The notes: generated from the sequence alone by a model not told the origin. Positions 7,576-49,722 are shown, counted from the stretch's first letter. The stretch: DNA of 64,000 nt from an uncultured bacterium (GCA_947643715.1 CANRXB010000012.1:444-64443); one strand, 5' to 3'. Translations and numbers: made by a program.

Positions 7576-7592
7576 GATCAGGCGCCATAGAC

Positions 7593-8276: not shown

Positions 8277-8344
8277 CTTCGGGCTCCTTCTTTCTTAAAA
8301 CTAAAGTGGGACCACCGGCGCATGACAGCAGTCTTTCCGGATAT

Positions 8345-8950: not shown

Positions 8951-9189
8951 TATACATCATCCTTTTCTGGGGTACGCCCTGCACTGTCCATCGCGATCAT
9001 CGTCTCATAGGCATCCCCCCTATCACACCTGTCACCACCATGGAACACACTCGAACGACAGTGCCATCATGCGCCCTATCGAGCCAATGTTACCATTGGC
9101 TCAAATAAATGTCAATGCTATATATTGATTTTTTATGCCAATATGCTACTTTATAGTTGCCTAACACAAGGAAGTGGAAGGGACAGTCG

Positions 9190-9537: not shown

Positions 9538-9929
9538 CGGACCCTTTCGCAAGCTACATCAAGCAGGTGGACCGGGCCTTGGACCTGCCGCGGCGCCAAA
9601 AAAAGGAGCTCCTGTGTGGGTTCCAGGCAGAATTGAAGGAGCGGTTCTCTGACATACCCAACGAGAAGACCCTGCTGGCCGACATCGGGCGGCCGGAGGA
9701 AGTGGCGTATACGCTGCTCGAAGCTGTAGACGTCAAAGAACATACGCGTTTCAATTCCATCCGTATCCGCTGGCTCTGCTCCATCATCGCTGTGCTCGCT
9801 CTATTAGCGACTTTGAGCATTGGGTCATTCGCTTACTTCGGTTTGACCCGAATCGATCGTGCAGAAGTGACCATCGTTGAGGATCCCATCCCGACTCAAT
9901 ACTCTTTCCCCACAGACGGCGGAGAATAA
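9534..9929 (+). CDS. PadR-associated single-pass membrane protein (HAAS/DUF1700-like N-terminus)
   Basis: ATGA overlap with padR; soluble N-domain with DIGRPEEVA, then one hydrophobic helix. Confidence 0.7.
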   Translation: MTDPFASYIKQVDRALDLPRRQKKELLCGFQAELKERFSDIPNEKTLLADIGRPEEVAYTLLEAVDVKEHTRFNSIRIRWLCSIIAVLALLATLSIGSFAYFGLTRIDRAEVTIVEDPIPTQYSFPTDGGE

Positions 9930-10050
9930 GAAATCGGAGGCTGCATGACAGGCAGCTTCAAGCGCTCCCTGTTCCCCAAAACTGTTTCTGTCTCGCTGAC
10001 ATGCTCCCCCAACGGGGTCCTGTCCTGATCCCAGCACCATATGCGAACGA

Positions 10051-10090
10051 CGACCAGGGATATCCTTCGGGATATCCCTGGTCGCTTTTT
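10051..10090. terminator. Intrinsic terminator between the convergent padR and ABC operons
   Basis: CGACCAGGGATATCC-TTCG-GGATATCCCTGGTCG plus a T run on the + strand. Confidence 0.8.
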
Positions 10091-10177
10091 GTGTCCTGCC
10101 TCCGGCCCGCCCTCGGCGAGAAAGACACCGCAGGCGGCGGAGCAGGAACGCCGCAGCCGTCCTCCTCCCAACGCGGC

Positions 10178-11209
10178 TCAGCGCTGCCCCTTATCGTAGG
10201 GGATGCCCTCTGCTTTGGGCGCACGAGACTTCTTCGAGGTGAACGCGAGCACCACCAGTGTGATGATATAAGGGAGCATCCGATAGACATGGGCGCTGAT
10301 GCCGATCTCCTTGAGCATACAGATGCCGTCCCCATTGATGTCGATGCTGGTATACGAAGCAGCGATGCACTTGAACAGCCCGAACAGCAGCGCGGCCCCG
10401 GCGATGTTCAGCGGCTTCCAGTTGCCGAAGATCATGACGGCCAGGGCCAGGAAGCCGAACCCCGCCACATCGCCGTTCGACGAGCAGTTCGCGGTGGTCA
10501 ATGCGTAGACGAAGCCGCCCATACCGGCCAGCGCACCGGAGATGGTCGTGCCCGCGTACCGCATCTGATAGACGTTGATCCCCAACGAGTCCGCCGCCTG
10601 GGGGTTCTCGCCGCAGGAGCGCAGCCGCAGGCCGAACTTGGTCCGATAGAGCACGACGGACAGCACGACGAACAGGAGGATACAGATATAGGTCACTAAG
10701 TAGACCTGATGGATGAAGGTCTCTCCCAAAAAGCCCAGATCGTCCGTCCGGCTGAAGCCCAGGTCGGTCTTGCGGAGCATGAACCAGGACGGGGCGTCCC
10801 CCCTGGCCATGTTCAGCACGTTTTGATCGGCGATGATGCGGATGAAGAACAGCACCAGCGCGGGGGCCATCAGGTTCAGCGCCGTACCGCCGATGGTCTG
10901 GTCCGCTTTCAAATTCACCGAGGCGAAAGACAGCAGCAGCGAAAAGACCGCGCCCGCAGCAGCGGCCGCCAGCATGGCCAGCATGGCGAAGCCCTGGAGG
11001 GCCAGCCAGTCCCCGTCTGCCTTGGCCTGGTCGAACACGCCGGCCTCCTGGACCATGTTCACGAACAGCACGCCGATGAACGCACCGAAGATCATGATGC
11101 CCTCCAGCGCCAGATCGATGATGCCGCTGCGCTCCGCGAACACGCCCGCCAGCGCCACGATCATCAGCGGGACCGCATAGATCAGCGTCTGCCGGATCAG
11201 GAACGTCAT
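10178..11209 (-). CDS. Nucleoside/sugar ABC transporter permease (NupC-like)
   Basis: AERSGIIDLALEG, RTKFGLRLRSCGENPQAADSLGI, FGNWKP. Confidence 0.9.
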   Translation of the reverse strand: MTFLIRQTLIYAVPLMIVALAGVFAERSGIIDLALEGIMIFGAFIGVLFVNMVQEAGVFDQAKADGDWLALQGFAMLAMLAAAAAGAVFSLLLSFASVNLKADQTIGGTALNLMAPALVLFFIRIIADQNVLNMARGDAPSWFMLRKTDLGFSRTDDLGFLGETFIHQVYLVTYICILLFVVLSVVLYRTKFGLRLRSCGENPQAADSLGINVYQMRYAGTTISGALAGMGGFVYALTTANCSSNGDVAGFGFLALAVMIFGNWKPLNIAGAALLFGLFKCIAASYTSIDINGDGICMLKEIGISAHVYRMLPYIITLVVLAFTSKKSRAPKAEGIPYDKGQR

Positions 11210-12435
11210 ACGCCCTCGCCTCCCTTCTCAGCCTTCCCCGGCACAGCCGGGCTCGCGCCCAACGAGGCGGCCTTGTGCTTCTTCCTGCCACCGAGCATCA
11301 TCTTGATCGCCAGGGAGAAGGCGCTCAGGTAGACGATGGCGGCGATGATCACATCCGTGATATACTCATTGTAGCCGGTGAGGTTGGTGAGCTGCTGCCC
11401 GGCGATGTTCAGCATGGACATGAAGCAGCCGGTGAAGATGATGGCCACAGGGTCGCTGGCCGCGAGCAGCGCCACCGGGATGCCATTGAAGCCCACGGCG
11501 GGCAGGGATTGGTAGGTGGACCAGAAAAATTCCGTGTTCCCGGACAGGTAGTACAGGGAAGCGGCGGCTCCTGCCAGACCTCCCGCGATGGCCATGGACA
11601 GCACGATGTCGCGCTTGTCGTCGATGCCGGCATACCGGGCGGCATGGCGGTTGCTGCCGCAGCACACCAGCTCATAGCCCATCGTGGTCTTGGTGAGGAA
11701 GATATACATCGCCACCGCCAGCACCACCGCGATACCGATGCCCCAGTTCACCTGGGATCCGGGGAAGATCGCGTCCAAGCCCCACCTGGCCGTCTCCACG
11801 CCGTTGTGGGCGGTCTTATAGATGTAGCCCGTCTTGCCGTTCTCCTCGATGTTGCGCCAGACGCTCCCGTCGAACACCCAGGTGACCAGGTTGGCGGCGA
11901 TCCAGTTGGTCATGATACAGGCCAGCACCTCGTTGATGTTCAGCAGGGCCTTCAACAGCCCAGGGATCGCGCCCCACAGCGCCCCGGCCAGGATGCCGGA
12001 CAGGAACGCCAGCAGCCAGACCAACGGTGCGGGGACGGACGCCGTGGGGATGCTCAGCGAGACGATCAGCGTGGCCGCGGTCCCCATCAGATACTGCCCC
12101 GGCGCGCCGATGTTGAACAGGCCAGTCTTGAACGCCACCGCCACCGAAAGCCCCGTGAGGATCAGCGGCGTGGCCCGGAAGAGCATATTGCCGACGTTGG
12201 CCGGATTGAAGCCGAAGGCGAGGCTGCCCGACGCGTCCCGCCCGGTGCTGAGGATGCCGCCCAGCACCAGCCGGATGCCGTCCCAGGCGGCTCCCGGCCC
12301 CAGGCCGGAGTTGGTCAGGCCCACGACGAGCACGATGACACAGCCGACCAGCAAGCCGATGCCGATGGAGATCAGCGAAGCCGCCACCGTCCTCGCCCCG
12401 TCCCTTTTCATCAGGGACGACCATCTCTCTCTCAT
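11206..12435 (-). CDS. Nucleoside/sugar ABC transporter permease (NupB-like)
   Basis: FKTGLFNIGAPGQY, INEVLACIMTN, GFNGIPVALL. Confidence 0.9.
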   Translation of the reverse strand: MRERWSSLMKRDGARTVAASLISIGIGLLVGCVIVLVVGLTNSGLGPGAAWDGIRLVLGGILSTGRDASGSLAFGFNPANVGNMLFRATPLILTGLSVAVAFKTGLFNIGAPGQYLMGTAATLIVSLSIPTASVPAPLVWLLAFLSGILAGALWGAIPGLLKALLNINEVLACIMTNWIAANLVTWVFDGSVWRNIEENGKTGYIYKTAHNGVETARWGLDAIFPGSQVNWGIGIAVVLAVAMYIFLTKTTMGYELVCCGSNRHAARYAGIDDKRDIVLSMAIAGGLAGAAASLYYLSGNTEFFWSTYQSLPAVGFNGIPVALLAASDPVAIIFTGCFMSMLNIAGQQLTNLTGYNEYITDVIIAAIVYLSAFSLAIKMMLGGRKKHKAASLGASPAVPGKAEKGGEGV

Positions 12436-35903: not shown

Positions 35904-36689
35904 TCAGCCACCGATCCCCCGCCAGACATTGTATACGCAGATGACGATGATCGCCCCCATCAGTCCCATGAACAGCCTCTCCACCAACCTATCGTCCATC
36001 CTTTTGTTCAGTATGCGCCCTACGATGCCGCCCCCTACGCCGCCGCCCACCATCACCAGCAGCACCGGCCAGCGAAAATCGGGCACGGTGTGGGTGAACA
36101 GCGTGGTGAACAGGCTGGCGAGCTGGCTGAACAGGATGATGTACAGGCTGTTCGCCGCCGCGGTCTTCGTCTCCATGCTGAAAAAGAAGTACAGCACCAC
36201 CAGGTTGATGGGACCGCCGCCGATGCCCAAAAAGCTGGACATGACTCCCAGGACCAGACCGATCGCCACACATGCGCCCGGAGCCGCGATCCGATGCGTA
36301 TGGATGCGGCCCTTGTTCACCGTGTATATCAGCGTGCCCAGCGTGATGGCCCCCAGGCAGGCGGCTTGGACCGCGCCCACCACCCCCTGATCTGCGAACA
36401 TGGACCTCAAAAGATCGAAAAGCTGCTTGCCCGCCAAGCCTCCCAGCGCCGCGCCGATGACCAGAGGCGTGCCCGTGCGCACGTCCACCCCGCTGTCGCC
36501 CTTGGTCAAAGCCCGCGTGACGGAATAGCAGCTCATCGACAAGACCGTACAGCCGGACAAAAAGCTGATGGTGGCCACGCTCTCCAGGCTCAGCATGTCC
36601 AGCACCGGTTTGATGACCACGCCGCCGCCGATGCCGCAGATGGCCCCCACCACGCTGGCCAAAAAGCTCACTATGAAAAAGATCGCCAT
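35904..36689 (-). CDS. TauE/SafE (TSUP) family exporter
   Basis: GAICGIGGGVVIKP, LGIGGGPINL, AAANSLYIILFSQ; fully hydrophobic. Confidence 0.88.
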   Translation of the reverse strand: MAIFFIVSFLASVVGAICGIGGGVVIKPVLDMLSLESVATISFLSGCTVLSMSCYSVTRALTKGDSGVDVRTGTPLVIGAALGGLAGKQLFDLLRSMFADQGVVGAVQAACLGAITLGTLIYTVNKGRIHTHRIAAPGACVAIGLVLGVMSSFLGIGGGPINLVVLYFFFSMETKTAAANSLYIILFSQLASLFTTLFTHTVPDFRWPVLLVMVGGGVGGGIVGRILNKRMDDRLVERLFMGLMGAIIVICVYNVWRGIGG

Positions 36690-36805: not shown

Positions 36806-38035
36806 ATGCAATTCGAACAGGGCAACAACCTGCCCCGAGTCAGGGTCACCAATCAGTCCGCCATCCTGCGCATGGTTTACCACTTCGGCCCCATCACCCG
36901 GGCAGATATCGCCAAACGGCTGGATCTCACCCTGCCCACCATCACCACGAACATCAACGATATGATGACGGCGGGCGTAGTGCAGGAACTGGACGCACCC
37001 GAGCCTATGGACCACCGTCACGGCCGCCGCAGCCGCCCGCTGGACATCGTGCCCAACGCGCGGCAGTTCATCGGCGTAGAGATGCGCGGCTCGGAGAGCG
37101 CCGCCTGTCTCACCGACTACCGCGGCCAGGTGCTGTGCAGCCGTTCCGTCCCCTCCCCCAGCCGAGATTATGAGGACAACCTGGACCTGACCTGCCGCCT
37201 CATCCGCTCCATGCTGGACGATCGCGGCCTCACCTTCGACGACGTGGACGGCTTGGGCTTCTGCGTCCCCGGCCTGGTGGACACCCGGTCCGGCGTGCTG
37301 AACGTGCGCCCCAGCTATAACTGGTACGACAAGAACCTCCTGCGGGACGTGAAGCGGCGGCTGCGCTTCGATAAGCCCATCACCATCGAGAACAACGCCT
37401 GTGCCCGGGCCTACGGCGCTTCGCTGTTCCAGCGGGAGCTGCTCAACGATGTGCCCACCTTCGCCTATCTCTTCATCCACATGGGCATCGCCTGTCCGCT
37501 GATCCTCAACTCCTCCAGCTCCTTCGGGTCCATCGTGGGCGCCGGGGAGGTCGGGCATATGGTGATGGAGCCCAACGGCCCCCAGTGCACCTGCGGCAAC
37601 CACGGCTGCCTGGAGGCCATCTCCAGCGACCGGGCCATCATCTCCCGCTGTATGGACGCTCTGGCCAGGGGAGGCGCGCCCATCCTGCGCACACTGTGCC
37701 CCAAAGGCGAAGAGCCTTCCATGGCCAACATCCTCCAGGCCCAGCGGGAGGGGGACTCCGACGTCTACCTCATCGTAGAGCGCGCGGTGTACACCCTGGG
37801 GCTGGCCATCGCAAACATCGACAATTTTACCTGCCCTCGCATCATGCTCATCGAGGGAGAGCTGTTCCGTGCCCCCGCCAACCGTCAGCAGCTCCTGGAC
37901 GTGGTGCATCGCAACATCTGCAAAGTCACCCGCACCGATACCGATTTCGTGTTCGTAGAGCCCGATCAGTTCAGCGGGGCCCGGGGCGCCGCCGCAGTCG
38001 CCATCTTCCATGACCTCGGATCGGGAGCGGGATGA
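36806..38035 (+). CDS. ROK family transcriptional regulator
   Basis: N-terminal HTH (ITRADIAKRLDLTLPTIT); ENNACARA; AGEVGHM; CTCGNHGCLE zinc motif. Confidence 0.92.
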   Translation: MQFEQGNNLPRVRVTNQSAILRMVYHFGPITRADIAKRLDLTLPTITTNINDMMTAGVVQELDAPEPMDHRHGRRSRPLDIVPNARQFIGVEMRGSESAACLTDYRGQVLCSRSVPSPSRDYEDNLDLTCRLIRSMLDDRGLTFDDVDGLGFCVPGLVDTRSGVLNVRPSYNWYDKNLLRDVKRRLRFDKPITIENNACARAYGASLFQRELLNDVPTFAYLFIHMGIACPLILNSSSSFGSIVGAGEVGHMVMEPNGPQCTCGNHGCLEAISSDRAIISRCMDALARGGAPILRTLCPKGEEPSMANILQAQREGDSDVYLIVERAVYTLGLAIANIDNFTCPRIMLIEGELFRAPANRQQLLDVVHRNICKVTRTDTDFVFVEPDQFSGARGAAAVAIFHDLGSGAG

Positions 38036-38107: not shown

Positions 38108-39262
38108 TCACTGCCGTTCCAGGATGTGCCCACGGGTGAACACCATGTCCACACCGCACGCTTCGTCCAGCACCACCAGGTCGGCATCCTTCCCGTCGGC
38201 GATCGAGCCCTTTCGGTCGAACACCCCGATCAGACGGGCAGGGCCCTCCGTCAAGGCGGGCAGCAGCTCCTCCAGCGGCCTGCCGGTGAACGCCAGCAGG
38301 TTCCTCAGCGCCGCGTCCTGGGTCAAAGTGCTCCCCGCCCGCACGCCGGTGGAGGCCAGCTTGGCGTCCCCATCCTCGACCACCACCTCGTTGACGCCCA
38401 AATGATACTTGCCGTCCGGCAGGCCGGCGGCCATGATGGAATCGGTGATGGCCACCACCCGGTCCAATCCCTTCGTCTTGATCAGCAGCCGCACCACGCC
38501 GGGATGGAGATGCCGCCCGTCGCAGATCATCTCACAGTACACATCGGACTCCAGCACCGCTCCCATGATGGCGGGCCGATGCTGGTGGAGCAGGCCCATG
38601 GCGTTGAAGGTGTGGGTGGCCGCAGCGGCCCCGTTTCCGATAGCCTCCATGGCCGTCTCATAGTCCGCGCCGGAATGGCCGATGGCGGTGACGATGCCCA
38701 GCTCCTTCGCCACGGGGATCATCTCGTTCACCCCCTCCACCTCCGGGGACACCGTGAGATAACGGATGCCCCCCTCCGCCCGCTCCTGATAGGAGCGCAG
38801 CAGATCCGAGTCGCCCTTGCGCAGTAGGTGCTCCGGCATAGCTCCCTTATACTCGGTGGCCAGGAAGGGACCCTCCAGATGGATGCCCAGTAGCTCGGCC
38901 GTGGGCTGCTCCCCGGCGTTGTGGACCTTGAACTGATCGATGCACCACTCTGTCTGCTCCACCGTGTCCGTGAGCACGGAACACAGCCACGAGGTGGTGC
39001 CGTTCCCGGCGAAAAAGCGGCCGATCTTCTCCAGGTCCTCCGCCGTGGCGCCGTTCACGTCCACGCCCACCGCGCCGTGGGTATGGACGTCGATGAAGCC
39101 GGGGACCACCCGCTTGCCCTGCACGTCCACCACCTGCGCCCCTTCCGGGACGGGCGCGTCCGCCGGGAGCACCTGGAGCTTGCCCTGGGCCAGCCGGAGC
39201 GTCCCAGGTCCGAACCTGCGGCCGACGTACACCTGGCCGTTGATGATATAGGTATCGTTCAT
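38108..39262 (-). CDS. nagA: N-acetylglucosamine-6-phosphate deacetylase family (NagA-like)
   Basis: PGFIDVHTHG, HLEGPF, IGHS, THTFNAM, ICDGRH, ITDS; start set at ATG 39262. Confidence 0.85.
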   Translation of the reverse strand: MNDTYIINGQVYVGRRFGPGTLRLAQGKLQVLPADAPVPEGAQVVDVQGKRVVPGFIDVHTHGAVGVDVNGATAEDLEKIGRFFAGNGTTSWLCSVLTDTVEQTEWCIDQFKVHNAGEQPTAELLGIHLEGPFLATEYKGAMPEHLLRKGDSDLLRSYQERAEGGIRYLTVSPEVEGVNEMIPVAKELGIVTAIGHSGADYETAMEAIGNGAAAATHTFNAMGLLHQHRPAIMGAVLESDVYCEMICDGRHLHPGVVRLLIKTKGLDRVVAITDSIMAAGLPDGKYHLGVNEVVVEDGDAKLASTGVRAGSTLTQDAALRNLLAFTGRPLEELLPALTEGPARLIGVFDRKGSIADGKDADLVVLDEACGVDMVFTRGHILERQ

Positions 39263-39281: not shown

Positions 39282-40103
39282 TCAATCCGACAGAGCGGCC
39301 ACGTATTCGGTGACACGCAGCAGCGCGTCCGGATGCGTCTGCATGATGGTGGCCGGGAAATGGGCGGACACCTCGCCATAGGCCGCATGGCGCACCACGG
39401 CCCGGTGCCAGTTTCGGAAACAGCCCAGACGCACCTTGCGTGCGTTGAAGATCTCATTCATGCCGATGGTGACGCACCAGCGGGGCATATCGTCCAGCGC
39501 CCCGTTGAAGTCCCCGATGGCGTTGGCCGTCCGGGTCTCCGGGGTGATGGCCAGCACCCGGGTATGGAGCGCCTTGAACTGCTCGGGCGTCAGCTCGTCC
39601 TGGGCCTCGTTGAAGGCGAGATGGCCGTTGATCCCGATGCCGCCGAAGCAGATGTCCACCCCGCCCAGCTCTTCGATCAGTGCGCTCATGCGCCCCGGAT
39701 CCTTTGGGTCGGGGAACACCCGCTGATCCTCCGGCATGAGCAGCTCCGGCCGGATCTGCGTATACACCGTCCGGTCCATGAATCCCCGGAAGCTGAGGGG
39801 ATGGCTCTTCTCGACCCACTCCTTCTCGTCGGTGAGGTACTCGTCCATATTGAGGAACCACACGTCCTTCAGACAGAGGCCCTTCCGGTTCACCATATCC
39901 ACAAAATAGGGATATTGCCCCACCGGCCCCACCGGGCAGATGAACACCGTGCGTTCACCCAGGGCGTTCTTCCGTTCGATCTCCTCCACCATCTCCCGGG
40001 CGATGGCCTGGAACACGGCGGCGTTGTCCTCCAGCACCTCCAGCGGCAGCTTCGGAGCCGCCAGCAGAGCTTGCCTGTCATAATAATAGTACTCGTGACG
40101 CAT
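39282..40103 (-). CDS. Glucosamine-6-phosphate deaminase-like protein (divergent NagB family)
   Basis: NMDEY and GGIGINGHLAFNE catalytic motifs; phosphate loop atypical (CPVGPVGQ); start set at ATG 40103. Confidence 0.8.
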   Translation of the reverse strand: MRHEYYYYDRQALLAAPKLPLEVLEDNAAVFQAIAREMVEEIERKNALGERTVFICPVGPVGQYPYFVDMVNRKGLCLKDVWFLNMDEYLTDEKEWVEKSHPLSFRGFMDRTVYTQIRPELLMPEDQRVFPDPKDPGRMSALIEELGGVDICFGGIGINGHLAFNEAQDELTPEQFKALHTRVLAITPETRTANAIGDFNGALDDMPRWCVTIGMNEIFNARKVRLGCFRNWHRAVVRHAAYGEVSAHFPATIMQTHPDALLRVTEYVAALSD

Positions 40104-40117: not shown

Positions 40118-41989
40118 TCAGGCCCCCGCGCCCCCGCGAAAGCCCGTATATTTTTCTGTGACCTCCAGCACCCGGTATTCGTCCAGCCATGCTCGGAGAT
40201 CGGGCCCTTTCTCACAGACGGTCCGGCGGAACTCCTTCCATCTCTCCCACGCCCTCGCCTCGTCCCCCTCGGCCAGCCGGCACAGGGCCCGGGACAGCTT
40301 GAGCACATAGTGCCGGTGGTAGTCCAGCACCTCCCAGAACGGAGTGTCCCAGCCTTTCGCCCCTCGATGTGCGTCCAGTGTGGGCGCGAAGTCCACGCAC
40401 AGCTCCCGGACCGCCTCCATCCGAGCGGCCATGTCCGCGTCCTTCCGCTCCCCCTTGCCGTTCACATAGTCGGTGCTGCTCAAGCTGGACAATCGGGACA
40501 GGTAGTCCGCCACCAGGGGCCAATCCTTCCCATAGGCAGCGGAAAAATACTCGCCCAGCAGCTCGTTCATATCCACGGACCGATCCAAAAGGGTCCGGCC
40601 CATGACATAGTTGGGGAAGAAATTGGGGAGGCCCGCCCGCAGCTCCTGACAGCTCATATAGCCGTCCAACCCCATGGCGTCCAGCCGCTTCACGTCCCCG
40701 CTGATGACCCGCGCCAGCTTCACATAACCCAGGTCGCCATAATGGGCCCGCCCCAAAGGATAATCGTATACGAAGCTGTCCCCGTGGAACAGCTCCTGCC
40801 ACCCCCGGAGAAAGGCCAGGTTCTCCGGCAGGCTGGTGGGCAAGACGATATGGTTGCGCTCATAGGGCGGGATGTCCGGCAGCTTTTCCTCCACGTCATA
40901 TGAGCGTTCGAATGTGCGGCTGATCGGGGCGAACATGAGCACGAAGCGCTCCGGGCGTTCCAGCCGCGCCTGCGCCGGGGGCCACAGCAGCTCCTGGTAC
41001 AGCAAGAACACCACCTTCGTGTCCAGCCCCTCCGCAGTGAGGCGGCGGTCGATCTCATTGAGCAGCTCCACATATTGGTCGGAGGGCGTGGTCACGCGGC
41101 ATCCTTCGCACTCACACATGTTGTTGTACGCATCCGCCAGCCAAACGTGGAGGTAGTCCACATCCGGCTCCTTTCTCGCATAGTCCACCACCAGGGCCGC
41201 GAAAGCGTCCACCGCGTCCCCGTTATGGAAGCACAGGTTGGTGTTGGCGGGCACGCCCTCATGCAGCCCGCGCACTCCCCCCACCTGAGCGGCCATTGGC
41301 CGCTCGGCCTCCGCCAGCGGCCGGGGAGCCGCGTCCCAGGACTGGGCCTCGAAGCCCAATACCTCTCCGGTCCAGCCATGGCCCACCTTGTGGAGCAGCG
41401 ACCCGCGGCGCTCCATCTCCCGTTCCGCCTCCTTCATCCAGGCCAAGGCGTCCTCCGGCGAAAAAGGCTCCGGCTCCCTGAACGGATCGCCCCGGTGCCC
41501 ATACCACCGGGCATAAAAGATGTAAGGCGTTTTGAATTGCAGGAAAAAGCTGTTGTATCCCAGCTTCGGCAGCCAATCGATGAACGCCAGGACATCTTCC
41601 CGGCTGTCCGCCCCTTCGATGCAGACGCCCCGGTGGCGGAAGGACGCCTGATGCTCGCAGCTCACCTTCAGCATCTCCCGGGTGATATGAGGCACGACCT
41701 CATACGCTTTCCCTGGGGCCAGGAACCGGCAGCCCAGACGGCGCAGGCACTCATACGCCCCCAGCAATACCGCCCGTGCGCTGTTCCCCACGATGGCCCC
41801 TCCCGCCCCGTCCAGCTCTATGGAGAACCAGTCGGTGCGGCTGTGCCCGCCGTCAGGACGCACCTCCAGGCGCACGGTAAGATCTCCCGGCACCTCCCCG
41901 AGCATCCGCGTCAGATAGGCTCTCAGTTCGCAAGCGGCAAAGGTCACAGGCTCCGGCGCGCCTGCGGGGCAGACGGTCTCGATGTTCAC
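40118..41989 (-). CDS. DUF4838-type protein (putative TIM-barrel glycoside hydrolase), cytoplasmic
   Basis: FAACELRAYL N-domain, FRHRGVCIEG, NTNLCFHN, HVWLADAYNNMCECEGC; GTG start after GGAGG. Confidence 0.65.
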   Translation of the reverse strand: MNIETVCPAGAPEPVTFAACELRAYLTRMLGEVPGDLTVRLEVRPDGGHSRTDWFSIELDGAGGAIVGNSARAVLLGAYECLRRLGCRFLAPGKAYEVVPHITREMLKVSCEHQASFRHRGVCIEGADSREDVLAFIDWLPKLGYNSFFLQFKTPYIFYARWYGHRGDPFREPEPFSPEDALAWMKEAEREMERRGSLLHKVGHGWTGEVLGFEAQSWDAAPRPLAEAERPMAAQVGGVRGLHEGVPANTNLCFHNGDAVDAFAALVVDYARKEPDVDYLHVWLADAYNNMCECEGCRVTTPSDQYVELLNEIDRRLTAEGLDTKVVFLLYQELLWPPAQARLERPERFVLMFAPISRTFERSYDVEEKLPDIPPYERNHIVLPTSLPENLAFLRGWQELFHGDSFVYDYPLGRAHYGDLGYVKLARVISGDVKRLDAMGLDGYMSCQELRAGLPNFFPNYVMGRTLLDRSVDMNELLGEYFSAAYGKDWPLVADYLSRLSSLSSTDYVNGKGERKDADMAARMEAVRELCVDFAPTLDAHRGAKGWDTPFWEVLDYHRHYVLKLSRALCRLAEGDEARAWERWKEFRRTVCEKGPDLRAWLDEYRVLEVTEKYTGFRGGAGA

Positions 41990-42113: not shown

Positions 42114-43181
42114 TTACTTCAGGGCCTCCTCCACCACGTCGAACAGGACGAACTGCCCCACGGCCTCCACGGCCTGATCGGCTTCGATGTTGCCGCCTGC
42201 CAGGAAGTCGTTCTGCATCCCCTCGTAATAACCCTTGATCGCGCCGTCCTCGATGCCGGCCTTCAGGTCCTCCAGGTTGAACCAGTGGGCGTCGCCCACC
42301 TGGACGAGCTGGGATTCCAGGCTGGCCTTGGTCTGATCGGCGCAGTACTGGGCCACGGTCTCATAGTTGTCCACCTTGGAACCCCAATCCATCCCTTTGA
42401 ACAGGGCGCGGCAGAAGCGCACCAGCACGTCCCGGTTCTCCTGGGCATACTTGGGCAGGCAGATCCAGCTAGAGATATTGGTGGAACCGTCGGAGAACTC
42501 GATCTCCTTGGCGCCCTCCACCTGCTTGATGATCTCAGAGGAGTAGGGGTTCCAGCACACAGCGGCGTCGATGGTGCGGGACACGGCGGCAGGCACGATA
42601 TTGTCGATGCTCAGGTCCATCAGCTTCACATCGTCACGGGTCAGGCCGGCCACAGTGAGCGCACTGTTCAGCGTGGCCTCGGAAGAGGAGCCGGAATTGA
42701 ACGCGATGGTCTTGCCCTTCAGGTCCTCCACCGTCTCGATGCCGCTGTCGGGCAGGACCACCACCCTGTCGGTGGTATGGACGGAGCTGGGCGCGAAGAT
42801 GACGGCGTTGCCCAAGATGCACAGCCGGTGGGCGCCCTTGCCGATGTAAGCCACATCGATCTTCCCGCTCTCCATGGCCGCGATCTCAGAGGGGCCGTCG
42901 GGGAACTCAGTCAGCTCGATGGTGATGCCTTCCTCAGCGAAGAAGCCCTGCTTGTCGGCGGACAGCACGCCCCAAAGGGAAGCGTAGTTGGGCATATAGG
43001 CGATGCGCAGGGTGATGGGCTCGGGACCGGCCGGCTCCGGATCCTTGGACTCTTGGCCCGTCGGGGCCTGGGCGGTCTGGGTCGGAACCGGATCCTTGGT
43101 GGGCTCGGGGGCATCGCTGGAGCACGCCGCCAGGGACATCACCATGACCAGCGCCAACAGCAGAGCGGTGAGTTTCTTCAT
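42114..43181 (-). CDS. SsuA/TauA/NMT1-like ABC substrate-binding lipoprotein
   Basis: Lipobox MSLAAC; FPDGPSEIAAMESGKIDVAYIG; DLKGKTIAF; IDAAVCWNPY. Confidence 0.85.
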   Translation of the reverse strand: MKKLTALLLALVMVMSLAACSSDAPEPTKDPVPTQTAQAPTGQESKDPEPAGPEPITLRIAYMPNYASLWGVLSADKQGFFAEEGITIELTEFPDGPSEIAAMESGKIDVAYIGKGAHRLCILGNAVIFAPSSVHTTDRVVVLPDSGIETVEDLKGKTIAFNSGSSSEATLNSALTVAGLTRDDVKLMDLSIDNIVPAAVSRTIDAAVCWNPYSSEIIKQVEGAKEIEFSDGSTNISSWICLPKYAQENRDVLVRFCRALFKGMDWGSKVDNYETVAQYCADQTKASLESQLVQVGDAHWFNLEDLKAGIEDGAIKGYYEGMQNDFLAGGNIEADQAVEAVGQFVLFDVVEEALK

Positions 43182-43253
43182 TTCATTTTCCTCCTTAGCT
43201 TTGTTTGGGACTGCCTGTATCTTGATCGCTCGCGAAAGCGGTCAGGCACGAAC

Positions 43254-44042
43254 TCACTTGCGGACCTCCAGGTACTCCTGATAGACCTCGTTCCAGATCT
43301 GGGCCTTGAGCTCCATGAACCGGGGGTCGCTCTTGGTGGCCTGGTCCCGGGGATACGGGATGTCGATGTCCACGATGCGCTTGATCCTTCCTGGCCGGGC
43401 AGACATGATGACCACTCTCTGGGCCAGCAGGACGGCCTCGTCCACGTCATGCGTGATGAAGAAGCAGGTCTTTTGCTCCTGCTCCCACGTCTTGAGCAGT
43501 TCGGTCTGGAGCTGGGCACGGGTCTGCGCGTCCAGCGCGCCGAAGGGCTCGTCCATGAGCAGCACCTCGGGATCGTTGGCATAGGCCCGGGCGATGGCCA
43601 CCCGCTGCTTCATACCGCCGGACAGCTCCTTGGGGAAAGAGTCCTCAAAGTCCTCCAGCCCCACCATCTTGATGTACTTGCGCGCGATCGCTTCACACTC
43701 CGCCTTGGGCAGACGCTTCATCTGGGGCCCGAACATGACGTTTTGGATCACGGTCTGCCACGGGAACAGGGCATACTGCTGGAACACCACGCCCCGCTCC
43801 ACGCCGGTGCCCTTGATGGGCTTCCCATCCAGGCGGCATTCGCCGGAGGTGGCTTCGTGGAGGCCGGCCAGGATGTTCAGCAGGGTGGATTTGCCGCAGC
43901 CGGACGGGCCCACCACACATACGAACTCGTTCTCCCAGATATCCAGATCGACGCCGTTGAGGGCCACGGTGGTGCCATGGTCGCCATGATACTCCTTGAC
44001 GACATGCTCGATCTTGATCTTCACGTCGCGCCCGGCGCTCAT
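43254..44042 (-). CDS. ABC ATP-binding protein (SsuB/TauB-like)
   Basis: GPSGCGKST, VFQQYALFPW, LSGGMKQR, MDEPFGALDAQTR; ATGA-coupled start at 44042. Confidence 0.92.
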   Translation of the reverse strand: MSAGRDVKIKIEHVVKEYHGDHGTTVALNGVDLDIWENEFVCVVGPSGCGKSTLLNILAGLHEATSGECRLDGKPIKGTGVERGVVFQQYALFPWQTVIQNVMFGPQMKRLPKAECEAIARKYIKMVGLEDFEDSFPKELSGGMKQRVAIARAYANDPEVLLMDEPFGALDAQTRAQLQTELLKTWEQEQKTCFFITHDVDEAVLLAQRVVIMSARPGRIKRIVDIDIPYPRDQATKSDPRFMELKAQIWNEVYQEYLEVRK

Positions 44043-44851
44043 GCCTCTTCCCGCTTCTCCTGCCATGAGGTCAGCCTCCTTTCGATGAAGTCCACAAAGA
44101 TGTTGAGCAGCGTACCGATGATGCCGATGAGGATGATGTAGCCCAGCATGGCATTGGTCTCGAAGGTGGTCTGGAGGGTGCGGATGCGCATGCCAAGGCC
44201 GGCCTGAGCGCCGGTGGATTCCGCCGCCAGCAGGGTGGTCAGGGCCGCGCTCAGGCCCAGCCGCACAGCAGTGAGGATGAACGGTACCGTGGCGGGCAGC
44301 GTGATGCGGAAAAAGATGTCCATGTCGTTGGCCCCCAGCACCCGGGCGGCCTTGACCAAGGTATTGTCGATGTTCCGGATGCCGTGGAAGATGGTGATGC
44401 ACATGGTCATGAAGGTGCAGATCCAGATGAGCACCACGGACGGGGTGCGGCCCACGCCCAGCATGATGACCACCAACGGCGCATAGGCCAAGGCAGGGAT
44501 GTTGCGGATGAAATTGATCCAGGGCTCGATGATCTTACGTACCGGGGTATACCACGCCATGAGGAACGCCATGGGCAGCGCGGTCACGAAGCCCAGGCTG
44601 AAGCCCAGCGCCACGGAGATCATACTGCTGGCAAAGTCGCCCAGCAGAGCGTCCCGGTCCAGCATGGTCTTCATGCCGTCGATCACGGCAGGGACGAACG
44701 GGAAGCTGCGTCCCGTCCTCTCCCCTTTGGACAGGCAGAACCAAACGATCAGCGCCACCACCAGCGAGACGAGCAGCCACGACCAGTTGATCAGCTTGCT
44801 GCGTTTCTCCGCTTTGCTCAAAGGTCTTTTCGCTTGCTTCACTTTGCTCAT
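44039..44851 (-). CDS. ABC permease (SsuC/TauC-like)
   Basis: RNIPALAYAPL, LVKAARVLGA (EAA loop), LLAAES. Confidence 0.9.
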   Translation of the reverse strand: MSKVKQAKRPLSKAEKRSKLINWSWLLVSLVVALIVWFCLSKGERTGRSFPFVPAVIDGMKTMLDRDALLGDFASSMISVALGFSLGFVTALPMAFLMAWYTPVRKIIEPWINFIRNIPALAYAPLVVIMLGVGRTPSVVLIWICTFMTMCITIFHGIRNIDNTLVKAARVLGANDMDIFFRITLPATVPFILTAVRLGLSAALTTLLAAESTGAQAGLGMRIRTLQTTFETNAMLGYIILIGIIGTLLNIFVDFIERRLTSWQEKREEA

Positions 44852-44931: not shown

Positions 44932-46428
44932 TCATCCGACGCAGGGATGAGGAGCGCCGCCGGGATCGTTGGCGCCGTCGTAGGGCTGGTCCTTCAGGCA
45001 CAGGTGGACGGCGGAGAGCTTGAAGGTCTTGGGCAGGGCCAGGATATCGGGGTCCGGCCCCACGTACTTCTTCTTCGCGTCCGCCAGCGCCTCCTCGAAG
45101 GTGGCCCGGGTCTTGAGGCCCATCCCCCGGGCGATCCCCGGCTCCTGCGCCCCCACGATGTAGATCGCCGCGGTCTCCATCTCCGCGATGTGCCCGCAGC
45201 TCATCATGGAGAACCCGTGGAAGGGGTGGAACGCGTTGCAGAAGCGGTACTTGCGGATGTACTCCTGGTTGGTGGCGAAGTACTCCCCATACCGGTCCAT
45301 ATCGGGCAGGACGTCCATGTGATCGTGCTGGAACATCTCATACAGCTCCCGCAGGTAGGGCCAGCGCTCGTCGTGGAAGTACCCGTTGCAGATCGACGAG
45401 CAGATGATCACGCAGTTGTCCTTCATCACCCGCTTGTGCCGGATCACCTGGGCGGACAGCGCCTGCATCATCTGGATCGGGTTGGTGCCCATCCCGTCCC
45501 CGTAGTGGAACGCCTGGGGCATCCCGAACACCATCACATCGTACTTCTTCTCCGCCCAGGGCACATACGTCCGCTTGTCCGCCACCTCCCAGCTCACCGG
45601 CATCATCTCCTTGGCATAGCCCGAGAAGATCGCGATCTGCCGGGAATACGTGTCCAGCACCGCGTCGCAGCAGAAGAAGGGATGGCCCATCTTCTCCTCC
45701 ATCCACATCCCGATCTCGTCGAACTTCGTCCGCATCAGGCTGTGGCCGGACACCGGGGTGAAGTCCGCCCGGTGCATCACCTTCGGCACGTGGTGGCTGG
45801 CGATGCTCCGCCAATGGGTGATCCCCGTGGCACAGTGCTTGTAGCCCCCGGAGTACCCCCCATACGGGTTGCCCTGGGTGTGGCCGATCAGGATGGGGAT
45901 GTCGCAGTCGAACACATACTTGTTCATCAGCACCGGGTCCCCCCGGCTGGTAGTCCCCAGGTCCACCATGTGCTCGTAGTCCTCGCTGTCGTGGGAGTCG
46001 ATCTGGCCCGTCCAATAGAACTCGCCGAACAGCTCCTCCCCCAGGATCTGCTTCATCTCGGGCACAGTGGCACGGGGGTGCAGCCCGTTGGAGAACAGCA
46101 GCCGGACGTCCTTCTTCTCCACCCCTGCCGCGTACAGCTCGTCCAGGCACGCCCGAATGGACACCTTCCGGTGGGCCGTGGCCTGGCACCCGCCCTTGAC
46201 GATGTCCGGGATGACGAACACCACGCGCTTGCCCGGTCCTGCCAGCTCCTTCAGCGCGGGCATCCCGATGGGATGACGGATGGACGCCAGGGTAGCATCA
46301 TACAGGCTGTCCCAGTCCTGGGGCAGACAGGGCGGGTCGGGGACCGTCTCCCCAGGGATGAACACGTCGGTGCTGTCGGGCAGCTCGGCGGCCATCAGGC
46401 CGTGGCCGTATTCGAATTCCAGTTTCAT
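44932..46428 (-). CDS. LarA-like nickel-pincer-dependent racemase/epimerase (DUF2088 family)
   Basis: HPIGMPAL, VIPDIVKG, SNGLHPRAT, HDSED, GGYSGGYKH (cofactor-anchoring Lys position). Confidence 0.75.
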   Translation of the reverse strand: MKLEFEYGHGLMAAELPDSTDVFIPGETVPDPPCLPQDWDSLYDATLASIRHPIGMPALKELAGPGKRVVFVIPDIVKGGCQATAHRKVSIRACLDELYAAGVEKKDVRLLFSNGLHPRATVPEMKQILGEELFGEFYWTGQIDSHDSEDYEHMVDLGTTSRGDPVLMNKYVFDCDIPILIGHTQGNPYGGYSGGYKHCATGITHWRSIASHHVPKVMHRADFTPVSGHSLMRTKFDEIGMWMEEKMGHPFFCCDAVLDTYSRQIAIFSGYAKEMMPVSWEVADKRTYVPWAEKKYDVMVFGMPQAFHYGDGMGTNPIQMMQALSAQVIRHKRVMKDNCVIICSSICNGYFHDERWPYLRELYEMFQHDHMDVLPDMDRYGEYFATNQEYIRKYRFCNAFHPFHGFSMMSCGHIAEMETAAIYIVGAQEPGIARGMGLKTRATFEEALADAKKKYVGPDPDILALPKTFKLSAVHLCLKDQPYDGANDPGGAPHPCVG

Positions 46429-46441: not shown

Positions 46442-47278
46442 TCATTCGCCCAGGTACAGCCGGACGATCTCCAGATATTCCTCAGGATAGAAGCCGATCT
46501 CCCCCTGGAACCGGGTCAGGGCGATCAGTCCGCCGTCGATCTCCTCGATGGACGCCAGCATGGCCGCGTTCTCCGCCTTCAAGCCGCCGCCGTACACCAC
46601 GTCCATCCCTCCGGTACGCTCCTTCACGAACCGGGCGATCTTGGTGATATAGTCCTTCCCCGCCGGGGTCTTGCCCGGCCCGATGGACCACACCGGCTCG
46701 TAGCCGATGACGACCTTGCTCTTGTCCACGCCCTCCAGCCCCACGTCCAACTGCGCTCCCAGCACCTGTTCCCACTGGGGCTGCTCCTCGCTGGTCTCGC
46801 CGATACAATACAGCACCGTCAGCCCGGCCTTTTGGGCGCAGCGGATCTCCTGGTTCAGCAGGCGGTCCACTGCGGACGCGTCGGCGGAGCCCGCCTCGGC
46901 CAGGATGCCTTTTTTGTCGTTGCGCTCCTCACAGTGCCCGATCAGGGTGGAGACGCACCCCATGGCCTTCACGATAGAGGCCGGCCGGTTGGTGGTGAAG
47001 GCCCCAAAGTTGCCCCCCACCGCCGTGTCCATGCGGTACACCCCCTGGCTGCCCAGCTTCACCGGGCTGTCCGGCGTCAACGCAGCCGCCGCCCCCAGCA
47101 GATGGGCCTCCGGCAGATACTGGACGAACTCCACCTTTTCAGGGTCGTACCTGCGCAGCCCCTCCTGGGTGCCGTCCACCACCGCCGCGCCCCAGTCTCT
47201 CACGGGGGCCAGCCGGTTCACGCCGCCCAGCTCCACCGGCACGTCGAACCGCTTCAGATTCAAGTAGATATGCTTCAT
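46442..47278 (-). CDS. Triosephosphate isomerase-family protein, divergent
   Basis: NLK, IGHCEER, GYEPVWSIG catalytic motifs; phosphate loops altered (YGGGL, IALTR). Confidence 0.85.
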   Translation of the reverse strand: MKHIYLNLKRFDVPVELGGVNRLAPVRDWGAAVVDGTQEGLRRYDPEKVEFVQYLPEAHLLGAAAALTPDSPVKLGSQGVYRMDTAVGGNFGAFTTNRPASIVKAMGCVSTLIGHCEERNDKKGILAEAGSADASAVDRLLNQEIRCAQKAGLTVLYCIGETSEEQPQWEQVLGAQLDVGLEGVDKSKVVIGYEPVWSIGPGKTPAGKDYITKIARFVKERTGGMDVVYGGGLKAENAAMLASIEEIDGGLIALTRFQGEIGFYPEEYLEIVRLYLGE

Positions 47279-47284
47279 CCCTCT

Positions 47285-48445
47285 TCACCTCAACTGAGCA
47301 TATTCCGGGAGATCGCCTCCCATCAGCGGCAGGGCGTACTCGAAGAAAGCGCCGGCGATCTTGTTCCCGTCCACGATCCATTCCAGCGGGAACTTCTTCT
47401 CCACGTTGGCCACCTTCTCCAGCGGCGCCAGGGACAGGCTGCTGCTGTACTCCGGATCGCGCACCGCGTCGATGGCCACCATGCAGCCGCTCTCCCCCTT
47501 CAGCGCCGCGTTCACCGCATACCGGCCCACCGCATACGCCTCCGCCCGGTCCACCTGGGACACGTAGGGGATGCTGGCCCGGCCCAACAGCCCCGGCTTC
47601 TCCGCCCGGGACTTGAGGCCCAGCCGCTGGACGATCTGGTCCGTGACGTGCTGCGCCGCGCCGCCGGGCACCGTGTGCCCGAAGCCGTCCACTATGCCGG
47701 TGTCCGCCAAGGACTTGCCGTCCAGGCCGCAGATCCCCTCGCTCACCGTCACCAGCAGGCCCTTCCCTTTGGCGTAGGCCCTTTCGATGTCTGCCAGCAT
47801 CCTGTCCTCGTCCACCGGGACCTCCGGCAAATACGTGAGCACCTCGCAGTCCGTCAGCCGCCCCGCCAGCGCGCTGGCGGCGGTGACCCAGCCAGCGTTG
47901 CGGCCCATCAGCTCCAGCACCACCACGTGGATCGGCAGGCCGGAGGCGTCCAGCGCCAGTTCCGCGGCGCTCAGCGCCGCGTACCGGGCGGCAGAGCCGA
48001 AGCCCGGGCAGTGGTCGGTGAGGTCCAGGTCGTTGTCCATGGTCTTGGGGATGCCGATGACCCGGACGTCCAGCCCCTCCTTTTTCGCCAGCTCGCTGAC
48101 CTTGTTGCAGGTGTCCATGGAATCGTTGCCGCCGTTGTAGAAGAAGCAGTCGATCCGGAACTTCCTCAGCGTTTCCAGCACCGTGGGGTAGTCCGCGCCG
48201 GTGAGCTTCCGCCGGCAGGAGCCGATGGCGGAGGCGGGCGTATGCCCCAATCTGGCGATGGTCGCGGCGGGCACGTCCGTCAAATCGATCAGGTCCCCGG
48301 CCAGGATGCCCTCCGCCCCGAAGCGGGCGGCGTAGATCTTGTCCACCTGCCCGGACGCCCTGGCCGCCTCCACCACCCCCTGGAGGGAGCAGTTGATCAC
48401 CGCCGTGGGCCCGCCGCCATGGGCCACCAAGATGTTCTTACCCAT
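47285..48445 (-). CDS. PfkA-family phosphofructokinase, PPi-dependent signature
   Basis: GGGPTAVIN, GGNDS, PKTMDND, ELMGRNAGW; start set at ATG 48445. Confidence 0.88.
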   Translation of the reverse strand: MGKNILVAHGGGPTAVINCSLQGVVEAARASGQVDKIYAARFGAEGILAGDLIDLTDVPAATIARLGHTPASAIGSCRRKLTGADYPTVLETLRKFRIDCFFYNGGNDSMDTCNKVSELAKKEGLDVRVIGIPKTMDNDLDLTDHCPGFGSAARYAALSAAELALDASGLPIHVVVLELMGRNAGWVTAASALAGRLTDCEVLTYLPEVPVDEDRMLADIERAYAKGKGLLVTVSEGICGLDGKSLADTGIVDGFGHTVPGGAAQHVTDQIVQRLGLKSRAEKPGLLGRASIPYVSQVDRAEAYAVGRYAVNAALKGESGCMVAIDAVRDPEYSSSLSLAPLEKVANVEKKFPLEWIVDGNKIAGAFFEYALPLMGGDLPEYAQLR

Positions 48446-48464
48446 ATATGATTTCTCCAATTTT

Positions 48465-48564: not shown

Positions 48565-49722
48565 TCAGATCCCCTTCTTGCGGTAGCGCTCCGCCATCTC
48601 GTCCAGGCTGACGCACTCCACCAGCGGGGCCTTGCCCACGGAGTCGAATTCCACGATCAGCGTGCCCACGACCTCCTTCACGCCCCGCTCGATGCACTCC
48701 ACGATCCGGGCCACGTCCTCGTCGGGCACGTTGCCGTACATGACGGTGTCCATGATGGGGGGGAAGAACACCCGGGGGTCGAAGGCGGAGGGGTTGTCCA
48801 CCAGCAGCTTATAGATGCCGCCGATGGATGCGCTCTCCCGCAGGGCCGGGCTGTCCCGGAACAGCTCCCGCAGGTTCCGGGTGACCGCCAGGCGGATGTC
48901 CGTGTCCACGTTGATCTTGCGGATGCCCAGCTTGGACACCTCTTTGAGCTGTTCCTTCTTGATGCCATAGGCGTCGTGGATCTCGCCGCCCAGCGCGTTG
49001 ATCTCCGATACGATGTACTGGGGCACGGTGGACGAGCCGTGGCTCACCAGAGTGCCTTCGATCCCCTGGTGCAGCATACACTCCTTGGTGGCGATCGCGA
49101 TCTCCTTGCGGATCACTGTGTCCTTGCCCTTGTTGGCCCCGTGCTTGGTTCCGTAACTGATCGCCAGCGCGTCCACCCCGGTCTGCCGGAAGAACTCCAC
49201 CGCGTCCATCGGGTCCGTGTACGTGGAGGTAGCGGCGAACACGTGGTCCTCCACCCCCGCCAGCACGCCCAGCTCGCCCTCTACGGTGACCCCACGCTCG
49301 TGGGCGTACTTCACCACCTCCCGGGTCAACTCCACGTTCTCCTTGAAGGGCAGGGACGAGCCGTCGATCATCACGGAGGTGTACCCTCCCGCGATCGCGG
49401 CCACGCAGGAGTCCATGTCCTTCCCGTGGTCCAGGTGGAGGGCCACCGGGATGGGAGAATGCTCGGCGTACTTCTTCACCGCCGCGGCGATGTTCAGCGC
49501 GCCCTTCTTCTTGTCCTCCAGGGTGCCCTGGGCGAAGTCGGTCCGGCCGCCCATGAAGGCGTTGGCCAGGTCCGCCCCCTGCAGGATGGCCGCCGAGCGG
49601 AACATCTCATGCACCTCGATCACTGCCTTCGCCTGGCACACCGCGTTCACGTTGAACGCCCCCTGCGCATAGTTGTGTGCCTCCGCCGCGTCCAAGATCG
49701 CTCTCATCGGAACTAACGCCAT
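48565..49722 (-). CDS. Class II (Zn) ketose-bisphosphate aldolase
   Basis: GAFNVN, LHLDHG, SVMIDGS, EGELG, GTKHG, SHGSS, KINVDTD, FDPR. Confidence 0.92.
   Translation of the reverse strand: MALVPMRAILDAAEAHNYAQGAFNVNAVCQAKAVIEVHEMFRSAAILQGADLANAFMGGRTDFAQGTLEDKKKGALNIAAAVKKYAEHSPIPVALHLDHGKDMDSCVAAIAGGYTSVMIDGSSLPFKENVELTREVVKYAHERGVTVEGELGVLAGVEDHVFAATSTYTDPMDAVEFFRQTGVDALAISYGTKHGANKGKDTVIRKEIAIATKECMLHQGIEGTLVSHGSSTVPQYIVSEINALGGEIHDAYGIKKEQLKEVSKLGIRKINVDTDIRLAVTRNLRELFRDSPALRESASIGGIYKLLVDNPSAFDPRVFFPPIMDTVMYGNVPDEDVARIVECIERGVKEVVGTLIVEFDSVGKAPLVECVSLDEMAERYRKKGI

Follow-up and report, generated by a model that had tools for sequence, protein, structure and literature searches.

A NagB-fold enzyme with a rebuilt anion site in a conserved operon of gut Clostridia: a candidate deaminase for glucosamine 6-sulfate

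The gene and its surroundings

The window considered here is a stretch of 64,000 nucleotides (nt) of DNA from an uncultured bacterium (GCA_947643715.1, CANRXB010000012.1:444-64443), and our subject is a single gene on its minus strand, at 39282-40103, whose product looks like NagB, the deaminase of glucosamine 6-phosphate (GlcN-6-P). We have tried to focus on one question about it: what does an enzyme act on when it has the catalytic centre of NagB and a different place for the anion? The parts of the gene on which the argument leans are these, the motif positions having been assigned from alignments and orthologs.

39282-40103, minus strand: NagB-like deaminase gene, with a translation of 273 residues
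40111-40117, minus strand: ribosome-binding site GAGGAGG, 7 nt ahead of the ATG and right behind the stop codon (40118-40120) of a gene for a DUF4838 protein
39915-39938, minus strand: codons C56-Q63, the shortened loop CPVGPVGQ
39837-39851, minus strand: codons N85-Y89 (NMDEY), with the catalytic Asp that matches Asp72 of Escherichia coli NagB
39606-39641, minus strand: codons G155-E166 (G-I-G-I-N-G-H-L-A-F-N-E), with the equivalents of His143 and Glu148
39516-39539, minus strand: codons E189-I196, with an invariant Arg191 and with Ile196 at the place of the canonical Arg172 (the Arg of "RFF")
39390-39419, minus strand: codons F229-R238 (F-R-N-W-H-R-A-V-V-R), with His233-Arg234 at the place of Lys208

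The ATG, at 40103, lies 14 nt past the stop of the upstream DUF4838 gene; a longer frame extends to 40190, and more than 100 homologs, 272-275 residues long, start at the same MRHEYYYY. On the other side, a paralog of nagA begins 19 nt past the NagB-like stop and has a GGGAGG site of its own. The four motifs that an earlier note on this DNA had quoted from the sequence all lie in the translation: CPVGPVGQ at 56-63, NMDEY at 85-89, GHLAFNE at 160-166 and RNWHRA at 230-235.

A NagB fold

The best solved relatives of the protein are GlcN-6-P deaminases (HMMER, E ~1e-16, 21-25% identity). An AlphaFold (AF2) model, computed from a family alignment of 71 sequences and having a mean pLDDT of 97, placed the NagB structures 5HJ5, 1NE7 and 1DEA at the top of a Foldseek search (E 7e-23, TM 0.80, 24% identity), with 6-phosphogluconolactonases ranked far lower. 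That is, the protein shares its fold (TM ~0.8) with the NagBs of E. coli (1DEA/1FS5), Vibrio cholerae (5HJ5) and Bacillus subtilis (2BKV), and it shares with canonical NagB the catalytic Asp of NMDEY, the His and Glu of GHxAFNE and the adjacency to NagA; it differs in its low sequence identity and in an insertion of about six residues after NE(A/P). The family profiles are less welcoming. Against TIGR00502 (nagB) the protein scores 89.3 bits, below the cut-off of 236.9, and against NF007291 (AgaI, galactosamine-6-phosphate isomerase) 59 bits, below the cut-off of 271, while a Pfam scan, PF01182 included, gave no match. The product of the gene is a NagB-fold enzyme, but it is no canonical NagB. 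The earlier note had described a NagB-like deaminase whose catalytic motifs are retained while its phosphate loop is rewritten, and the fold, the catalytic residues and the altered anion site are all there.

Catalytic centre and anion site

To map the active site we aligned the 71-sequence family, profile to profile (hhalign), with 17 canonical NagBs from the bacterial family of the source genome; as a cross-check, HMMER was used to align the protein pairwise with V. cholerae NagB, which is numbered as in E. coli. Conservation was read from 81 orthologs of 64-100% identity. The catalytic residues are retained, Asp72 as Asp87, His143 as His161 and Glu148 as Glu166, and none of the three varies in the orthologs.

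The anion site is another matter. In the E. coli structures three canonical elements bind the phosphate: the loop of Thr41 and residues 42-44, Arg172 and Lys208. In the 17 canonical NagBs that loop reads L(A/P)TG(S/G)(S/T)P, and its T, G and P, together with the later Lys and also the Arg, are invariant, just as the pattern cited in the earlier note would have it. In the NagB-like protein the loop has become C-P-V-G-P, with Val58 for Thr41 and with the equivalents of Gly43-Thr44 deleted; the invariant Arg of A-N-x-R-F-F (Arg172) has become Ile196; and the place of Lys208 is taken by His233 in the hhalign and MAFFT alignments, or by Arg234 in that of HMMER. Close by, Arg230 takes the place of an invariant Gly three residues before the Lys208 place, and Arg238 stands one helical turn after it. 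The account of the site given before our analysis had caught the changes of the loop and the Lys and had missed that of Arg172; it was right that the Lys has gone from RNWHRA, but whichever alignment one prefers, a cation remains there.

The list of what does not vary among the 81 orthologs is long: C56-P60, G62-Y64, N85-L90, G155, G157, N159-H161 and A163-E166, and likewise R182, E189-R191, N194, I196, F229, W232-R234 and R238. Within the G155-E166 motif the changes at 156, 158 and 162 are conservative; R230 is retained in 80 of the orthologs, and residue 61 is V in 78. Since the rewritten site itself is unvarying, it must be under strong purifying selection, and its features are not there by chance.

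What sort of pocket is this? Judged from the aligned residues, it appears not to have been merely stripped of charge: the invariant His233, Arg234, Arg238 and Arg191 and the nearly invariant Arg230 have been kept or gained, which is the reason that an anion is still to be expected in it. A pocket with fewer hydroxyl and backbone donors and with many Arg and His residues would be a better match for a monoanionic sulfate than for a dianionic phosphate.

The plainest objection is that the anion could still be phosphate. In other words, the protein could be a divergent GlcN-6-P deaminase that holds its phosphate through Arg230, His233, Arg234 and Arg238, in an operon that would be a second route for N-acetylglucosamine (GlcNAc) or GlcNAc-6-P. 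All of the catalytic residues are retained, cationic residues still stand at or near the Lys208 place, and "glucosamine-6-phosphate isomerase" is the database name that some of the close relatives carry. We nevertheless hold this to be unlikely, for reasons that lie in the genome and in the operon.

A second NagB in the same genome

The source genome, which is 96% complete, has a canonical nagB on another contig, encoding 246 residues, scoring 282.7 bits against TIGR00502 and reading LATGSSP and GEDKAE.

Contig C22:9509-11361 (L001:371-2223), minus strand: canonical nagB and, directly downstream, a second NagA-like open reading frame (371 residues)

It is the genome's housekeeping locus for amino sugars. 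(An open reading frame near the canonical nagB resembles a regulator by eye.) When one genome was taken for each genus of the Oscillospiraceae, seven showed a NagB-like hit (76-99 bits), and a canonical NagB above cut-off was present in six of them, the source genome included; the seventh is 70% complete. With a canonical nagB elsewhere in the genome, the NagB-like gene is a specialised paralog, and a second GlcN-6-P deaminase would join a genome that already has both a canonical nagB and a nagA-like gene.

The short loop in a wider family

One might imagine that the loop names the substrate, and the earlier note had held the enzyme with its rewritten site to be the strongest single-protein clue to the pathway. 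Of the 5,419 relatives that a word-indexed search with the protein found, the 120 nearest share 72-86% identity with it and belong to gut Oscillospiraceae, Lachnospiraceae and Butyricicoccus; an exhaustive search gave 143 clusters at E < 1e-30. The short P-x-G-P loop is common to relatives down to ~30% identity (64 representatives). In the 71-sequence alignment, whose members are 28-85% identical, P57-x-G59-P60, MDE, GxGxxGHxAFN, Arg182 and Arg238 are nearly invariant, and an R-x-W-H-R motif is confined to the closer relatives.

A relative of 49% identity again follows an importer of the NitT/TauT type of ATP-binding cassette (ABC) systems. Distant short-loop relatives (34-41% identity) occur in other contexts, namely L087 (ERZ15610165), L098 (SRR11646528) and L099 (JGI 3300055047): one distant relative adjoins two ROK genes, an EamA transporter and an Fe-alcohol dehydrogenase, and a further one adjoins a PfkB kinase and an ABC permease, most contigs with distant members being too short to inform. 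A short loop that is a trait of a wider family in varied contexts names no substrate by itself, and that family probably spans several. The site is truly altered, as the note said, but the loop is family-wide, and the gene neighbours are the stronger clue.

The operon and its conservation

On the minus strand the genes run in the order class II aldolase, pyrophosphate-dependent phosphofructokinase (PPi-PFK)-like kinase, triosephosphate isomerase (TIM)-like enzyme, LarA-like enzyme, ABC permease, ATPase, substrate-binding protein of the SsuA/NMT1 type, DUF4838 protein, NagB-like enzyme and NagA; NagA is convergent with a NagC-like regulator of the ROK family, which is in turn divergent from a TauE exporter. 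We surveyed this neighbourhood by tblastn with the window proteins in 80 loci, one for each species, from gut Clostridia that are mostly Oscillospiraceae and Lachnospiraceae; the counts given with the genes are out of these 80, and many of the absences stem from contig ends. Among the carriers in culture are Intestinimonas aquisgranensis CLA-AA-H199, Blautia acetigignens and Oscillospiraceae bacterium 38-13.

48565-49722, minus strand: class II ketose-bisphosphate aldolase; 44/80 loci
47285-48460, minus strand: PPi-PFK-like kinase, over the cut-off of the PRK14072 subfamily; 46/80 loci
46442-47278, minus strand: TIM-like isomerase with altered phosphate loops; 60/80 loci
44932-46428, minus strand: LarA-like nickel-pincer enzyme, also 904 bits against PDB 9q3j; 58/80 loci
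44039-44851, minus strand: ABC permease
42114-44851, minus strand: the whole NitT/TauT-type ABC importer, ATPase included
42114-43181, minus strand: SsuA/NMT1-like binding protein of that importer; 63/80 loci
40118-41989, minus strand: DUF4838 protein, cytoplasmic, PF16126 at 38 bits, over cut-off; 55/80 loci
38108-39262, minus strand: nagA paralog (GlcNAc-6-X deacetylase), TIGR00221 at 291 bits, over cut-off; 72/80 loci
36806-38035, plus strand: NagC-like ROK regulator; 41/80 loci
35904-36689, minus strand: TauE/SafE anion exporter; 38/80 loci

A further gene, a transaldolase of the TAL/FSA type (a close homolog at 85-100% identity), occurs in 14 of the 80 loci, where it fills the same operon slot as PFK and aldolase; both of these are absent from all 14, and no locus with the aldolase has the transaldolase. 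Kinase and aldolase on the one hand and transaldolase on the other are what separate the two routes of sulfoquinovose breakdown that are named sulfo-EMP (Embden-Meyerhof-Parnas) and sulfo-TAL. Such an alternation is sensible only if the ketose bears a group at C6 that ordinary glycolysis cannot use.

A GlcN-6-P deaminase fits poorly here. The operon has neither a 6-kinase nor a phosphotransferase system, and fructose 6-phosphate, the ketose that would result, needs no dedicated PFK, aldolase, TIM-like enzyme, swappable transaldolase or TauE exporter. We argue that the conserved operon points to a C6 anion other than phosphate, most likely a 6-O-sulfate, whose charge is lower than that of phosphate. 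A less charged C6 group had been proposed from the active site; the operon favours one in the form of the sulfate. The family-wide loop does not specify it alone, and with a pocket that is still cationic an anion is to be expected.

Links to sulfur

Several of the neighbours bear on sulfur. A cluster of cytoplasmic DUF4838 proteins has been characterised as glycoside hydrolase family 185 (GH185) through the exo-6-sulfo-beta-GlcNAcase Sp_0475, which acts on a sulfate ester and has as key residues Q174, H227, D309 and Y436, with R633 as a ligand of the sulfate (PMC10570127). The DUF4838 protein of the window, with 623 residues, no signal peptide and an N-terminus that is not hydrophobic, has Q151, H204, D286, Y410 and R606 at spacings of 53/82/124/196, as against 53/82/127/197 in Sp_0475, and in the ESM Atlas DUF4838 clusters are found in Bacillota. 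By these residues the neighbour is probably a GH185-type 6-sulfo-beta-GlcNAcase, and its similarity to such an enzyme also speaks against a GlcN-6-P substrate for the NagB-like protein. The binding protein of the importer is nearest to SsuA/TauA models and structures, with weak similarity that stays under the family cut-offs.

The TIM-like and PFK-like enzymes have altered phosphate motifs too, which is a further difficulty for GlcN-6-P. The phosphate loops of the TIM-like enzyme are SIGPGK, YGGG and GGLIALTR, as against AIGTGK and YGGS in true TIMs and, for the third, the canonical GGLIGGAS; the catalytic region is kept, and the HMMER alignment to true TIMs ends just ahead of the usual GGAS loop. 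Compared with the true PPi-PFKs 3HNO and 3K2Q, the PFK-like enzyme has His in place of the Lys that stands nine residues ahead of MGR, and L-G-R-A-S-I-P for L-Q-R-A-A-R-H (QR to GR), positions that we assign, as our own assumption, to the surroundings of the 6-phosphate site for fructose 6-phosphate.

The TIM-like and LarA-like genes also travel together in unrelated clusters of other members of the phylum. In L125 (G491:C1:2020500-2040499) and L126, relatives of both (the LarA-like one at 45-47% identity) accompany a CUT1 sugar ABC system, PFK, aldolase, two GntR regulators and TauE, with neither NagA nor a NagB-like gene, so that this back-end module must serve another front end as well. In L123 (G153:C56:64000-83999, ~5784-11924) the TIM-like and LarA-like genes (the latter at 64% identity) stand beside a dihydrodipicolinate synthase (DHDPS)-family enzyme, a glutaredoxin-like protein and an arylsulfotransferase (ASST), and this last neighbour is a further tie of the pair to sulfate-ester chemistry.

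A sulfated substrate is plausible for the deacetylation step, since NagA enzymes deacetylate GlcNAc-6-sulfate, with a Km ~7-fold above that for the phosphate (PMC6016474). The NagA paralog, compared with that work, retains the His-Arg anion pair, as a GlcN-6-P deaminase beside it would lead one to expect; but we set the paralog aside as a clue to the substrate, FNAM and His-Arg being kept in both NagA copies of the genome and not discriminating between them. The gluconate epimerase LarAH15 was likewise rejected as a model for the LarA-like protein, whose match to it is far below the cut-off (171 against 740 bits).

Four large proteins that match the Pfam Sulfatase model PF00884, of ~700-910 residues, lie on contigs C44, C34, C50 and C28 (L089-L092) of the 96%-complete genome, one of them with a doubtful S-x-P-x-R match. 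None of the four has the formylglycine motif (C/S-x-P/A-x-R) at its expected place, for which reason we judged them unlikely to be sulfatases and, from their sequences, take them probably to be other members of the superfamily; nor did a search of the genome for a sulfatase maturase give a match above cut-off.

A proposed pathway that keeps the sulfate

Put together, the operon suggests to us a GlcN-6-sulfate deaminase/isomerase that gives fructose 6-sulfate. This proposal is well motivated by context, and we regard it as somewhat better than an even bet. The substrate, each of the reaction steps and the fate of the sulfate are what we infer, as follows.

The NitT/TauT-type ABC system would import 6-sulfo-GlcNAc, either free or in a small glycoside. 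The cytoplasmic GH185-like DUF4838 enzyme would liberate 6-sulfo-GlcNAc, and the NagA paralog would take off the acetyl group. The NagB-like enzyme would then act by standard NagB chemistry, with ring opening by His161, a C2 proton shuttle by Asp87 and hydrolysis of the imine, and would release fructose 6-sulfate and ammonia. PPi-PFK and the class II aldolase would cleave the ketose to dihydroxyacetone phosphate and a C3 sulfate ester, or, in other species, the transaldolase would cleave it to fructose 6-phosphate and the same kind of ester. The TIM-like and LarA-like pair would handle the C3 piece, and TauE would export the sulfur anion; we may speculate that the TIM-like enzyme forms an enediolate, that sulfate is eliminated and that the LarA-like enzyme acts on the product. 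The whole would be a sulfatase-independent "sulfate-ester glycolysis," to which the NagB-like enzyme would commit the sugar and in which the sulfate would stay on until the triose stage, where the TIM-like and LarA-like pair would remove it ahead of export through TauE. For the scheme in full we would not claim even odds, although it is far from fanciful.

Several points weigh against a GlcN-6-sulfate deaminase. The Arg and His residues that may touch the C6 group of the substrate are placed by alignment, and distant relatives in other contexts have the P-V-G-P loop and lack Arg172 too. One distant relative adjoins a MurQ/GKRP-like SIS protein and NagA, hinting at a phosphosugar, as a GlcN-6-P deaminase would have it. 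The GH185 likeness of the DUF4838 neighbour is one of residue spacing, not of alignment to Sp_0475, and binding proteins of the SsuA type commonly take small sulfonates rather than sugars. A minimal cluster, L004/L005 (GCA_948628595.1, ERZ779626; 7480-13064), holds TIM-like, LarA-like, NagB-like, ROK and TauE genes only, with no NagA, ABC importer, DUF4838 protein, aldolase or transaldolase; this cluster and the MurQ-linked relative are the main observations for which the pathway model does not account. Finally, a sulfate ester and a sulfonate are indistinguishable from sequence.

The last point leads to a second family of answers, in which the NagB-like enzyme acts on another anionic amino sugar: 6-deoxy-6-sulfo-glucosamine, a sulfonate and the amino counterpart of sulfoquinovose; glucosaminuronate; or the epimer GalN-6-sulfate. 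In favour of a sulfonate are the importer, which belongs to the sulfonate/taurine kind, the annotation of TauE as an exporter of sulfite or sulfonate, and the exchange of PFK and aldolase for transaldolase, which mirrors sulfo-EMP and sulfo-TAL; for a galacto sugar there is the weak match to the galactosamine-6-phosphate isomerase profile already given. Against this, N-acetyl-sulfoquinovosamine is not known to have a natural source in the gut, whereas 6-O-sulfo-GlcNAc is plentiful in mucin. The transaldolase variant favours the gluco/fructo configuration, because transaldolases require that of fructose and the NagB-like proteins of the transaldolase clusters are 72-77% identical to the window copy, which tells against a galacto substrate. 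The sole characterised GH185 enzyme acts on a sulfate ester (PMC10570127), and since sulfite inhibits nickel-pincer enzymes (PMC12611868), the release of sulfite beside a LarA fits poorly. We would give such sugars, taken together, about the same small chance as GlcN-6-P.

Nor need the protein be a deaminase in vivo at all. It might work on another intermediate together with the TIM-like and LarA-like enzymes, whether as an aldose-ketose isomerase, as an epimerase or by binding a ligand. One might suppose so from the minimal cluster without NagA, from the distant relatives beside PfkB kinases or Fe-alcohol dehydrogenases, and from Streptococcus plurextorum, where a gene that is glucose-6-phosphate-isomerase-like, not NagB-like, is reported near the LarA homolog (PMC12611868). 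We find this the least credible of the alternatives, and improbable. The full residue set of a NagB deaminase is invariant in the 81 orthologs, NagA is adjacent in the 72 loci counted above, often with genes that overlap or are closely spaced, and the S. plurextorum swap better suits a NagB-like enzyme that serves as the amino-sugar entry into a shared ketose pathway.

Relation to known systems

The nearest parallel to the proposed route for GlcN-6-sulfate is the glycolysis of sulfoquinovose, by YihS, YihV and YihT in sulfo-EMP and by SftI and SftT in sulfo-TAL. There, a 6-sulfo-ketose is formed by an isomerase and then cut, either by kinase and aldolase or by a transaldolase; C1-C3 alone are retained and a TauE-type protein exports the sulfur product, all of which would have its counterpart in what we propose. 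But no enzyme of the operon is homologous to those of sulfoquinovose glycolysis. An amino sugar, probably with a sulfate ester at C6, would enter through deacetylation and deamination, and a TIM-like and LarA-like back end would replace the sulfolactaldehyde reductase or dehydrogenase.

Sulfate groups are believed to shield colonic mucin. For its breakdown, the credit currently goes to carbohydrate sulfatases, chiefly those of Bacteroidota, Akkermansia and bifidobacteria. In the ats2 cluster of Bifidobacterium breve (AtsR2, a transporter, a sulfatase and a maturase), which has the same presumed nutrient, GlcNAc-6-sulfate, and a ROK-family regulator too, a formylglycine sulfatase removes the sulfate first (PMC9599254), whereas the source genome has neither such a motif nor a maturase above cut-off. 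A sulfatase of the ats2 type under a ROK regulator is the only described bacterial route for GlcNAc-6-sulfate that our literature search found (PMC9599254). That search met no mention of a GlcN-6-sulfate deaminase, of fructose 6-sulfate or of glyceraldehyde 3-sulfate, and nothing relevant on a sulfatase-independent route for GlcNAc-6-sulfate or on the contacts of Arg172 and Lys208 in NagB.

If the proposal is true, there is a deaminase for GlcN-6-sulfate within a conserved operon recovered in the genomes of 80 species of gut Clostridia, and widespread gut Oscillospiraceae and Lachnospiraceae would process mucin-derived 6-sulfo-GlcNAc with its sulfate still attached. Carriers could live, without any sulfatase, on free 6-sulfo-GlcNAc from other microbes, and models of mucin cross-feeding and of gut sulfur flux would change. 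The enzyme would then show clearly how a phosphosugar enzyme can be retuned to a sulfosugar, through a shortened loop and substitutions to Arg and His. The LarA_Bw/LarA_Sp subfamily of nickel-pincer enzymes, an orphan with structures from 2025 but no known substrate, would gain a physiological role.

The LarA-like gene of the window is in fact an ortholog of LarA_Bw (Blautia wexlerae, PDB 9q3j), at the 904 bits listed above. The LarA_Bw paper left substrate and pathway open, raised a possible role in carbohydrate metabolism and modelled a phosphorylated sugar (PMC12611868); no sulfated substrate was proposed and the NagB-like protein was not analysed there. Among the neighbours of LarA_Bw, however, that paper of 2025 names a "glucosamine-6-phosphate isomerase" (PMC12611868), which is most likely an ortholog of the NagB-like gene described here.

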